A program made the translations under genes and the position numbers. The notes beneath the pieces were generated by a model. It saw only the letters and a program-made list of their open reading frames with translations, ran no database searches and was not told the DNA's origin. DNA of 1,013 bases, from the NCBI GenBank assembly GCA_000004985.1, contig GG739618.1. The stretch is one strand, 5' to 3'. This document shows positions 44 through 1,013 of the stretch, piece after piece. The DNA comes from Naegleria gruberi. Its lineage: Eukaryota. How positions within the stretch are numbered: the stretch's first letter is position 1; every line of letters starts with the position of its first letter.

Positions 44-77
44 CGGAACCGTCTGAATCGCAGCCGTTCGGGAGTTG
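44..77. repeat. Conserved 34-bp core motif, copy 1 (CGGAACCGTCTGAATCGCAGCCGTTCGGGAGTTG)
   Basis: 33/34 identical to 342-375; the only difference is C49 versus T347. Identity stops abruptly at both edges (41-43 vs 339-341 and 78-81 vs 376-379 do not match). Contains an internal 9-bp-period duplication, GAAYCG-TCT-GAATCG. Confidence 0.9.
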
Positions 78-111
78 GGTACCTCAAAAAATTGATATTA
101 TTATATATCAT

Positions 112-136
112 TGTATAGTCAAATAACTATTATATC
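112..136. repeat. Collinear homology block TGTATAGTC...ACTAT..ATATC, copy 1
   Basis: TGTATAGTC (112-120) is identical to 976-984. ACTAT (126-130) matches 990-994, and ATATC (132-136) matches 998-1002. The block lies about 35 bp after the core copy, as its partner does. Confidence 0.6.
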
Positions 137-147
137 AAAAATGGCTA

Positions 148-169
148 GAACCCAGCCGTTCAAAAGTTG
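148..169. repeat. Partial, variant copy of the core motif (GAACC-CAGCCGTTCAAAAGTTG)
   Basis: GAACC (148-152) matches core positions 46-50, and CAGCCGTTC...AGTTG (153-169) matches 61-77 apart from GGG->AAA. The 10 bp GTCTGAATCG of the core is missing. That gives 19/22 aligned bases identical, with one 10-bp gap. Confidence 0.6.
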
Positions 170-185
170 ACAATGATTTTTATGA

Positions 186-211
186 ATATATATCTATCTA
201 TTATCTATATA
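186..211. repeat. TA/TATC-type low-complexity stretch
   Basis: ATATATATCTATCTATTATCTATATA consists only of short TA and TATC iterations. It sits in the most AT-rich part of the window: line 181-240 has 9 G+C out of 60. Confidence 0.6.
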
Positions 212-252
212 ACCTTTTGTAAAGATTTTATTTTATAGAAATTGATTTTTGA

Positions 253-279
253 GCATGTTTCAAAAACCCAAAAACATGC
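253..279. repeat. Small inverted repeat, 8-bp stem and 11-nt loop
   Basis: GCATGTTT (253-260) is the reverse complement of AAACATGC (272-279). The loop is CAAAAACCCAA. Confidence 0.6.
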
Positions 280-341
280 ACTTCGGGTCTCTGACTTCAT
301 GGTTGTCTATTTTCGGAACTGTTGAGAAGTAGTTCGTACAT

Positions 342-375
342 CGGAATCGTCTGAATCGCAGCCGTTCGGGAGTTG
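342..375. repeat. Conserved 34-bp core motif, copy 2 (CGGAATCGTCTGAATCGCAGCCGTTCGGGAGTTG)
   Basis: Direct repeat of 44-77 at an offset of 298 bp, 33/34 identical. Its 5' part (347-360) also pairs with an inverted partial copy at 393-406. Confidence 0.9.
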
Positions 376-406
376 TCATTTACTTCGTAACTTGCGATTC
401 AGGCGA
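347..406. repeat. Long imperfect inverted repeat (potential hairpin) formed by the core motif and an inverted partial copy
   Basis: 347-360 (TCGTCTGAATCGCA) pairs with 393-406 (TGCGATTCAGGCGA): 14 positions, with 13 Watson-Crick pairs plus one T350/G403 pair. The inner helix AGTT 371-374 / AACT 389-392 is also possible. No T-run follows on either strand. Confidence 0.7.
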
Positions 407-420
407 AAATAAATATCAAA

Positions 421-490
421 ATATGACACAACAGGGGTATTCATTTTTCACGACTTTTTTAGGGTGACTTATGGACCTGTTGTGTCATAT
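421..490. repeat. Perfect 15-bp inverted repeat with a 40-bp spacer
   Basis: ATATGACACAACAGG (421-435) is the exact reverse complement of CCTGTTGTGTCATAT (476-490). The pairing does not extend further on either side. Confidence 0.85.
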
Positions 491-538
491 AAACAATTTC
501 GTATTTTTTTTAGGAGGCCTGGAAAAAATTTTGGAACC

Positions 539-561
539 AAAAAAAAAGAAAAAAAGAAAAA
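539..561 (+). repeat. Purine/poly-A low-complexity tract (A9 G A7 G A5)
   Basis: 23 nt containing 21 A and 2 G. It is the source of the KKKKKRK run in the 471-692 ORF. The related unit has only an A10 run, at 740-749. Confidence 0.85.
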
Positions 562-596
562 TAATTATCGGATTGACTATAAACTCGAGGGGCCCA

Positions 597-692
597 GGAA
601 CTAGCAATATTTTATTTTCCCGAAATTCGCAAGTAAAATTTTCGATCGAAGGTTTTGCACTAATATTATTTATTTACAATAAACTGGATTAA
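597..692. repeat. Tail of repeat unit, diverged duplicate of 794-912
   Basis: Blocks shared in the same order: GGAACTA (597-603 vs 794-800); ATTCGCAAGTA vs AATCGCAGTA (625-635 vs 822-831); TTTTCG..GA.GGT (639-653 vs 838-848); AACTGGATTAA (682-692 vs 902-912). Offsets drift through 197, 199, 195 and 220, so there are indels between blocks. Confidence 0.55.
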
Positions 693-718
693 GAGAATCC
701 TCTGAATCGAAAGTCGGG
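682..718. repeat. Degenerate core-motif copy preceded by an 11-bp leader, AACTGGATTAA
   Basis: 695-709 (GAATCCTCTGAATCG) matches core 344-358 at 14/15. It is followed by AAAGTCGGG, which resembles CAGCCGTTCGGG with a deletion. The leader AACTGGATTAA (682-692) recurs exactly at 902-912. Confidence 0.6.
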
Positions 719-780
719 GTGAGAGAAAAATTTCGGGGGAAAAAAAAAATTTCAAAAGTATGGTTGTGTTATCAATATAA

Positions 781-795
781 CCCGACACTGTCGGG
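781..795. repeat. Small GC-rich hairpin, CCCGAC-ACT-GTCGGG
   Basis: Perfect 6-bp stem (781-786 / 790-795) with a 3-nt loop. No adjacent T-run, so it does not look like a terminator. Confidence 0.5.
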
Positions 796-912
796 AACTA
801 ATACAGCCCTACTTTTGCTTCAATCGCAGTATTTAACTTTTCGGAGGTGGTCATTTTTTAAATATCCAATTAAATTTGAGTATTCGGTATTAATTGTAAT
901 GAACTGGATTAA
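794..912. repeat. Tail of the next repeat unit, diverged duplicate of 597-692
   Basis: Same collinear blocks as listed for 597-692. Ungapped identity over the first ~42 bp is only about 50% by hand comparison. Confidence 0.55.
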
Positions 913-938
913 CAGGATCGTTTAAATCGCAAGTCGCG
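902..938. repeat. Degenerate core-motif copy preceded by the same 11-bp leader, AACTGGATTAA
   Basis: 902-912 is identical to 682-692, at an offset of 220 bp. 915-933 (GGATCGTTTAAATCGCAAG) aligns to core 343-361 with 2 mismatches and 2 single-base indels. Confidence 0.6.
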
Positions 939-943
939 ATCGC
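936..943. other. GCGATCGC octamer palindrome (same sequence as cyanobacterial HIP1)
   Basis: Exact GCGATCGC at 936-943. A second CGATCG-core palindrome, TTCGATCGAA (10 bp, perfect), lies at 641-650. A single HIP1 occurrence is only a weak taxonomic hint. Confidence 0.4.
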
Positions 944-975
944 CGATTTTTGTTCCTTTCATCAAACAAAGAAAA

Positions 976-1002
976 TGTATAGTCGGTTTACTATATAATA
1001 TC
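976..1002. repeat. Collinear homology block TGTATAGTC...ACTAT..ATATC, copy 2
   Basis: Matches 112-136 with a 9-bp exact seed plus two 5-bp exact blocks in the same order. Offset is about 864 bp. Confidence 0.6.
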
Positions 1003-1013
1003 CTTTATGAAGT

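Follow-up and report, generated by a model that had tools for sequence, protein, structure and literature searches.

What might a short repeated element, kept invariant between diverged lineages, be doing in a spacer known for its lack of conservation? The rRNA genes of Naegleria are carried on circular extrachromosomal ribosomal DNA (rDNA) elements (CEREs) of 13.6-16.2 kb, present at about 4,000 copies per cell, whose intergenic spacer (the non-ribosomal sequence, NRS) contains numerous regions of repeated sequence with limited interspecies conservation (PMC7714845, PMC5805870, PMC10586121, PMC11008152). The NRS is described as repeat-laden and is hypothesized to hold regulatory domains, the sequences that direct rRNA transcription being unknown (PMC13398248, PMC7714845, PMC5805870). 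In the CEREs characterized so far, including those of N. gruberi (MG699123/AB298288), N. fowleri (MT741533) and N. australiensis (OQ627480), a single rDNA cistron is accompanied by 7-10 kb of AT-rich NRS with repeat families of 34 bp to 2.1 kb, a homing-endonuclease-like open reading frame (ORF) downstream of the 28S gene and an ORF upstream of the 18S gene. The stretch of DNA considered here, 1,013 nt of Naegleria gruberi contig GG739618.1 (the window), belongs by its sequence to the same type of molecule, and both ORFs recur in the circles that match it. A spacer with sub-repeats is an ordinary kind of region, and in Naegleria such repeats have already been described. Whereas those descriptions list repeats species by species and stress the poor conservation of the NRS, the window contains a bipartite element of about 33 nt that is common to several Naegleria lineages. 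We suggest that the copies of this element are probably binding sites for protein, and that they may form a set within the upstream control region of the rDNA unit, for which we favor a role in regulation of RNA polymerase I (Pol I), with a probability of about 0.42.

Outside Naegleria, the rDNA of Didymium and Physarum has an upstream promoter region made of direct repeats with nested inverted repeats (PMC13182076). The window resembles the upstream promoter regions of Didymium iridis and Physarum polycephalum in having direct and nested inverted repeats upstream of a Pol I transcription unit, within a multicopy rDNA of non-Mendelian inheritance. The likeness is one of arrangement: the rDNA of Didymium and Physarum is linear and that of Naegleria circular, and whereas the Didymium units are regular, 260 bp long and highly similar to each other, the motif copies here are spaced by 92, 206/298, 353 and 220 nt and have just ~11-47 nt in common. 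A further parallel is found in Tetrahymena thermophila, where the type I elements of the rDNA 5' spacer have a role at the replication origin and are situated close to the promoter, some of the copies being within Domain 1/Domain 2, a tandemly duplicated segment of a few hundred base pairs beside AT-rich DNA. Both are extrachromosomal rDNAs whose upstream spacer repeats a short element in a single orientation, and again it is the arrangement that is alike; the Tetrahymena type I elements are AT-rich, and the Naegleria element is GC-richer than its surroundings. The TTF-I and Reb1-type sites of animal, plant and yeast spacers are likewise repeated, orientation-dependent protein sites, located upstream of the promoter of the rRNA genes and varying in copy number by unequal exchange; we recognized no match in the Naegleria element to the Sal-box or Reb1 consensus. 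Unlike the spacer promoters of animals, plants and yeast, the repeats described here have no significant similarity to the candidate start region of the rRNA genes.

The window was compared with contigs that carry Naegleria rDNA, labeled L003, L014, L015, L001/L002, L004, L007, L010, L011 and L018. A metagenome scan with a 22-nt core of the element recovered three contigs, all of them linked to rDNA; L014 and L015 were retrieved through a second endonuclease-like ORF in the spacer, and L001/L002, L004, L007, L010 and L011, which represent other Naegleria lineages, through the endonuclease of an intron. A search from a spurious ORF internal to the large subunit (LSU) rRNA gene gave just short or divergent contigs without useful upstream sequence, and little sequence upstream of 18S is available in L011 and L018. 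Over its full length the window is 96.9% identical to L003:1337-2360, and its reverse complement is 97.8% identical to L014:13554-12541; it is by this 97-98% identity to rDNA-bearing contigs that the window itself is placed in physical linkage with rRNA genes. L003 encodes eukaryotic LSU, 5.8S and small subunit (SSU) rRNAs and a GIR1 branching ribozyme within an SSU intron (202.7 bits), and the intron ORF is a His-Cys-box homing endonuclease that is 89% identical to its N. italica counterpart, 86% to that of N. philippinensis and 82% to those of N. gruberi and N. andersoni. L014 and L015 are 99.5% identical to L003. L014 overlaps itself exactly with a period of 13,799 bp and is therefore a closed circle, with SSU at 1463-3482, 5.8S at 3516-3660 and LSU at 3808-7263. 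The window corresponds to 1.35-2.37 kb upstream of 18S in L003 and to 1.71-2.72 kb upstream in L014, where one additional 372-bp repeat accompanies the larger distance, and its strand as given is antisense to the rRNA genes.

The window has a GC content of ~34%. Its largest ORF encodes 73 aa, the exact-protein look-up of this ORF returned no record, and Pfam gave no match to the longest ORFs of the window, so the proposal that the region is non-coding stands. Scans of the window detected no tRNA and no Rfam match above noise, and the plasmid and phage collections contained no meaningful match to it. A search of 185,579 prokaryotic species genomes and of viral contigs did not recover the 22-nt core, which speaks against a prokaryotic host. 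By its matches, then, the window is non-coding intergenic spacer of a Naegleria CERE, and its repeats are sub-repeats of an rDNA spacer, a class that the original prediction, which was made from the bare sequence, did not name.

The element consists of module A, CTGAATCG[C/A]A[A/G], and module B, CAGCCGTTC-RRR-AGTTG; besides the full elements there are half-copies with just module A (Table 1). Copy 1 is the element closest to the 18S gene and is antisense to the rRNA genes. When it is compared with its counterpart in L001, 27 of 27 positions are identical, while the aligned non-element columns of the L003-L001 alignment are 48% identical, and the chance of such a run is ~5e-7. Full elements number three in the window, three in L003, five per unit in L014, three in L001, five in L004 and ~5 in L010. 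In four lineages all copies lie 0.9-3 kb upstream of 18S, mostly antisense to the rDNA, and none is downstream of 28S. Even the diverged variant represented by copy 2 has a match elsewhere, at L004:5703-5732. Module A is strongly over-represented, with 14 copies in L001 (0.6 expected) and six in L003 (1.0 expected), and five copies are present in the L010 spacer; on its own it is dispersed more widely through the NRS, with an equal orientation bias.

It is not only the element but also its paired arrangements that recur. The proximal tandem pair, with a spacing of 92/93 nt, is kept in L003 and L001, and its TATATC columns are invariant; the collinear homology of L003 and L001 stops just beyond the second element. 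Copy 3 forms the left arm of an inverted-pair module, an architecture found also at L001:5228-5291 and at L010:2854-2936, where both arms are complete elements in inverted orientation. The distal copy in L001 is flipped relative to the rDNA, which may be explained by an inversion between inverted module A arms. L014 and L015 contain an additional 372-bp tandem copy of L003:1231-1601, the proximal module, and copy number therefore varies between near-identical circles. The three full elements of the window flank an AT-rich tract. When 100-nt segments of the 13.8-kb L014 circle are ranked by duplex stability, this tract and its tandem duplicate are the second and third least stable, and the conserved inverted pair is next to it. 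NRS sequences are reported to be poorly conserved between species (PMC10586121), and in the Naegleria NRS literature that we searched, where repeats are listed per species by self-BLAST, no motif shared between species is named. The element common to several lineages and its paired arrangements are, against that literature, a new observation, small but concrete.

How might the element relate to the transcription unit? Directly upstream of 18S there are ~890 nt of 60-73% GC, followed by a sharp drop to 21-28% GC. At this AT-to-GC switch, L003, L001, L004 and L010 share a conserved block composed of TCATCGACCCCCC, ~6 nt, and GTCTGA.C.TC.GTTCCT.ACC.TGCGGAC, at a distance of 725-980 nt from 18S on its upstream side. 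This block may be where Pol I starts, or it may be a site at which the external transcribed spacer is processed early. The L004 version of the block contains GTCGAC. The proximal element is upstream of the block by 488 nt in L003, 478 nt in L001 and 407 nt in L010. We favor the Pol I role because this distance is nearly constant, because the element is biased in orientation relative to the genes, and because of the precedents in other rDNAs, in which spacer sub-repeats act as enhancers or as promoter-proximal terminator sites. One or more sequence-specific proteins would bind the elements and organize the upstream control region of the rDNA unit, and a factor bound to repeated, orientation-biased sites could have the function of an upstream promoter element, of an enhancer, or of a terminator-type element close to the promoter. 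Spacers of rDNA typically undergo unequal recombination and slippage, and these would leave the sequence between the sites poorly related and the number of copies variable.

Several points weigh against this proposal. The very AT-rich tract and the adjacent conserved inverted pair would suit a replication origin at least equally well. The element is weakly present in L007 and was not found in L011 or L018, both of which offer limited upstream sequence. The transcription start of Naegleria is placed here just from conservation and base composition, and the extent of the transcribed region can be read from composition just weakly, as the 37% GC of internal transcribed spacer 2 (ITS2) illustrates. 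We also considered whether the repeats might be copies of the candidate start block and rejected this, since the window has no significant similarity to it, and the repeats are therefore probably not classical spacer-promoter duplicates.

A replication origin or maintenance module is the close rival of a Pol I control region, although on balance we doubt it somewhat more. The inverted and tandem pairs would bind an initiator or a factor associated with the origin recognition complex (ORC), and the AT tract would unwind. The inverted-pair module is conserved in three lineages, the tract and its duplicate rank next after the least stable site of the circle, and a polar function would agree with the orientation bias; the CERE of N. 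gruberi has a single origin, within a 2.1-kb fragment of the NRS (PMC13315211), and replication of the Entamoeba rDNA circle starts preferentially near the rRNA promoter, within the upstream spacer (PMC10285105). However, the single least stable site of the circle is elsewhere (L014:9587-9686), and the distance from the proximal elements to the inverted-pair module varies between lineages from ~0.2 to 1.6 kb. The two roles may also coincide in the same elements, as in the type I elements of Tetrahymena. An unlikelier explanation than either is that the repeats are neutral, the leftovers of unequal crossing-over and gene conversion with no sequence-specific role, as might be expected from the unrelated or marginally similar interiors of the repeat units, the copy-number difference between near-identical circles, the decay of the copy at 915 through eight clustered substitutions, and the poor conservation reported for the NRS (PMC10586121). 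Homogenization within a genome does not explain why all 27 of 27 positions agree between lineages with just 48% identity in the flanks, nor does it account for a motif found at similar position and orientation in four lineages.

Two further readings, both raised in part by the original prediction, fare considerably worse. Small non-coding RNA genes or spacer transcripts, one per unit, like the NsiR1 array of cyanobacteria or as hairpin RNAs from the inverted repeats, are very improbable. Spacer transcripts are known in other rDNAs, and three inverted repeats in the window are able to form stable DNA hairpins (Table 1). But the linkage to Naegleria 18S, 5.8S and 28S genes identifies a eukaryotic host, which removes the prokaryotic array, Rfam had nothing to offer above noise, promoter-like sites are at shuffle level (4 against 4.4), and the terminator-like sites (2 against 0.7 expected) both fall on the strand opposite to the motif and are not repeated from unit to unit. 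The inverted pair was also rejected as an RNA hairpin, since across lineages its arms follow the family consensus, with no covariation that would preserve pairing. Least credible of all is a decayed satellite, a miniature transposon or the internal repeats of a transposable element lodged in the spacer. Short inverted repeats and repeated motifs are indeed present, but the exact 22-nt core was found just in the three rDNA-linked metagenome contigs and is missing from the prokaryotic-genome, viral-contig, phage and plasmid collections, its position relative to 18S is conserved across lineages, it is under cross-species constraint, Pfam found no coding remnant in the longest ORFs of the window, and no terminal inverted repeats bounding a unit were noticed.

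The original prediction had read the whole window as a degenerate array of related units (U1-U4), each opening with the same core. The strings that it quoted are all present where it placed them, and the repeated core is genuine: the pair at 44-77 and 342-375 is 97% identical over 34 nt, and the local alignment of U1 with U2 has a z-score of 14.8. A third core copy at 136-169 is 65% identical, and what had been taken for a partial copy at 148 is instead the diverged full element that we list as copy 2. Block 5 of the prediction is supported by the diverged module A at 619-645, which is followed by GTAAAATTTTCG. The sub-motif CTGAATCGMAR occurs four times with up to one mismatch (0.07 expected) and six times with up to two (1.09 expected), counts that none of 200 shuffles reached. 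The predicted spacings of 298 and 220 nt were confirmed, the third being 353 rather than 351 nt. That each unit opens with the core holds for the window strand; in the sense of the rDNA the units end with it.

What does not hold is the uniform array. Chain scores were compared with 300 dinucleotide shuffles and with 400 draws of natural spacer from other Naegleria circles. The collinear chains of U1-U2 and U2-U3 score above 300/300 shuffles and 400/400 natural draws, the U1-U3 chain is weaker (6/400 natural draws), and comparisons with U4 are weak or non-significant. When the cores and junction blocks are removed to leave the interiors I1-I3, however, I1-I2 is at chance level, and I2-I3 (8/300 shuffles, 14/400 natural draws) and I1-I3 (3/300 and 24/400) are marginal, so it is the cores and the junction block that supply most of the signal. 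Ahead of the cores the copies have no homology to each other except for the AACTGGATTAA pair, exact repeated 9-mers beyond the core and AACTGGATTAA are near shuffle expectation, and Tandem Repeats Finder detected no long-period array in the window. Nor does the window fit the definition of a regular tandem sub-repeat, with successive spacings of 92, 206, 353 and 220 nt. The claim of a whole-window array is overstated because the interiors are at or near chance, the preceding sequences are unrelated and no long-period array is detectable; what the window does contain is a real family of short motifs, set in spacer that is otherwise poorly related.

The copies at 695 and 915 match just the first half of the core, GAATC-N2-CTGAATCG, and the full-element nhmmer profile did not detect them. 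They belong to a 47-nt direct repeat, 670-716 and 890-936, whose copies are 79% identical. In the sister circle L003 the copy at 915 is a perfect half-core, GAATCGTCTGAATCGCAAGT, which is intact in L014 too. The window differs from L003 and L014 by 22 substitutions, eight of which fall within the 26 nt at 916-941, where they abolish the perfect half-core and generate GCGATCGC; this cluster may be a local conversion tract or may reflect relaxed constraint on that copy. GCGATCGC, at 937-944, was considered as the HIP1 signature of cyanobacteria and rejected, since it is lineage-specific, a product of the eight clustered substitutions, and missing in L003 and L014.

Table 1. Coordinates of the features in the window and of the conserved block at the AT-to-GC switch. 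Positions are those of the window unless a contig is named; DNA fold z-scores are flattering, the hairpin regions having been picked post hoc.
Feature	Position	Strand	Description
Element copy 1	48-78	+	Module A CTGAATCGCAG fused to module B CAGCCGTTCGGGAGTTG; nhmmer E=2.6e-7
AT-rich spacer of the 92-nt tandem pair	79-140		Conserved TATATC block before each element
Element copy 2, diverged full copy	141-170	+	GGCTAGAACC-CAGCCGTTCAAAAGTTG; nhmmer E=4.6e-6
AT-rich tract	168-267		16-17% GC, very low duplex stability
Element copy 3, modules A and B	345-376	+	nhmmer E=1.2e-7; 97% identical to copy 1
Inverted-pair module	347-406		TCGTCTGAATCGCA, 32-nt spacer, TGCGATTCAGGCGA; module A inverted at 392-402; 14-nt inverted repeat, 93% complementary; DNA fold z=-3.8
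Perfect 15-bp inverted repeat	421-490		ATATGACACAACAGG / CCTGTTGTGTCATAT, 40-nt loop, 100% complementary; DNA fold z=-5.6
174-nt dispersed NRS repeat	557-730	+	Other copy ~2.1 kb away in the sister circle
Diverged module A, then GTAAAATTTTCG	619-645	+	GAAATTCGCAAGTAAAATTTTCG; read from sequence
47-nt direct repeat, copy 1	670-716	+	AACTGGATTAA and half-core GAATCCTCTGAATCGAAAGTCG; module A at 702-712
Imperfect 19-nt inverted repeat	753-817		Encloses hairpin CCCGACAGTGTCGGG; 84% complementary; DNA fold z=-4.3
Degenerate module A	819-829	+	TTCAATCGCAG; 2 mismatches
47-nt direct repeat, copy 2	890-936	+	Half-core mutated; module A with 2 mismatches at 922-932
AT-to-GC block	L003:850-905 (-), L001:6730-6800, L004:6375-6440, L010:4950-5020		

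The L003 spacer contains many repeat families besides the element. The 174-nt dispersed repeat is represented there by L003:1894-2067 and 4032-4205, which are 96.6% identical, and the window matches the distal one at 90.8% identity. The diverged module A at 619-645 and the sequence after it resemble CTGAATCGAAAGTAAAATTTTCG, which is recurrent in L001. A 119-bp tandem array is located at L003:5649-6301, ~1.7-2.4 kb downstream of 28S and beyond the endonuclease-like ORF, and this array, like the 372-bp proximal unit (L003:1231-1601), shows an apparent copy-number difference between L003 and L014.

The circles also differ in, or share, several genes and introns. The ~890-nt GC-rich block upstream of 18S (L003:1-890) contains an ORF of 178-182 aa, at 181-729 on the minus strand of L003 and at L014:736-1272, which has no Pfam match. 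In N. gruberi an "ORF upstream of 18S" has been reported without explanation, and the present ORF corresponds to it; the high GC content of an external transcribed spacer has probably produced it as an artefact. A free-standing spacer ORF of 351-355 aa is intact in both circles (L003:6341-7408 on the minus strand, L014:7861-8916 on the plus strand), ~600 nt downstream of 28S and on the rDNA strand. It encodes a His-Me/His-Cys-box endonuclease domain (PF05551, E=1e-26) and has just three homologues among 5.8 billion proteins; its N. gruberi counterpart is reported to be a likely pseudogene (PMC5805870). The SSU twin-ribozyme intron, with GIR1 and the homing endonuclease, occupies L003:13282-14434 and is missing from L014 and L015, so intron presence is polymorphic between near-identical circles. 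The LSU gene of L007 has an extra group I intron at L007:11247-11534 (RF00028, 50.4 bits). L004 is a nearly complete Naegleria rDNA circle, contig JACCDN010942333.1 of the highly fragmented NCBI assembly GCA_013558295.1, where it may be a contaminant; its endonuclease falls in the same 90%-identity cluster as that of N. andersoni.

The sequences that govern CERE replication and rRNA transcription are stated to be unknown, and because the NRS is poorly conserved, comparing sequences is of little help in locating the origin (PMC13315211, PMC13398248). The motif described here, unchanged between diverged lineages and biased in position and orientation, is a concrete candidate for a component of the origin or the promoter, if one of modest value. 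It is conceivable, though we think it rather less likely than the Pol I role proposed above, that the bipartite element CTGAATCG-CAGCCGTTC-RRR-AGTTG, the inverted pair and the AT tract together constitute a shared cis-acting core of CEREs, either an origin or initiator site or a Pol I upstream control element, recognizable across species despite the divergence of the remaining spacer. If so, it would provide a sequence handle for locating the CERE origin and promoter and for building stable episomal vectors, and the motif could aid vector design in Naegleria and, should N. fowleri have it, in that pathogen as well.

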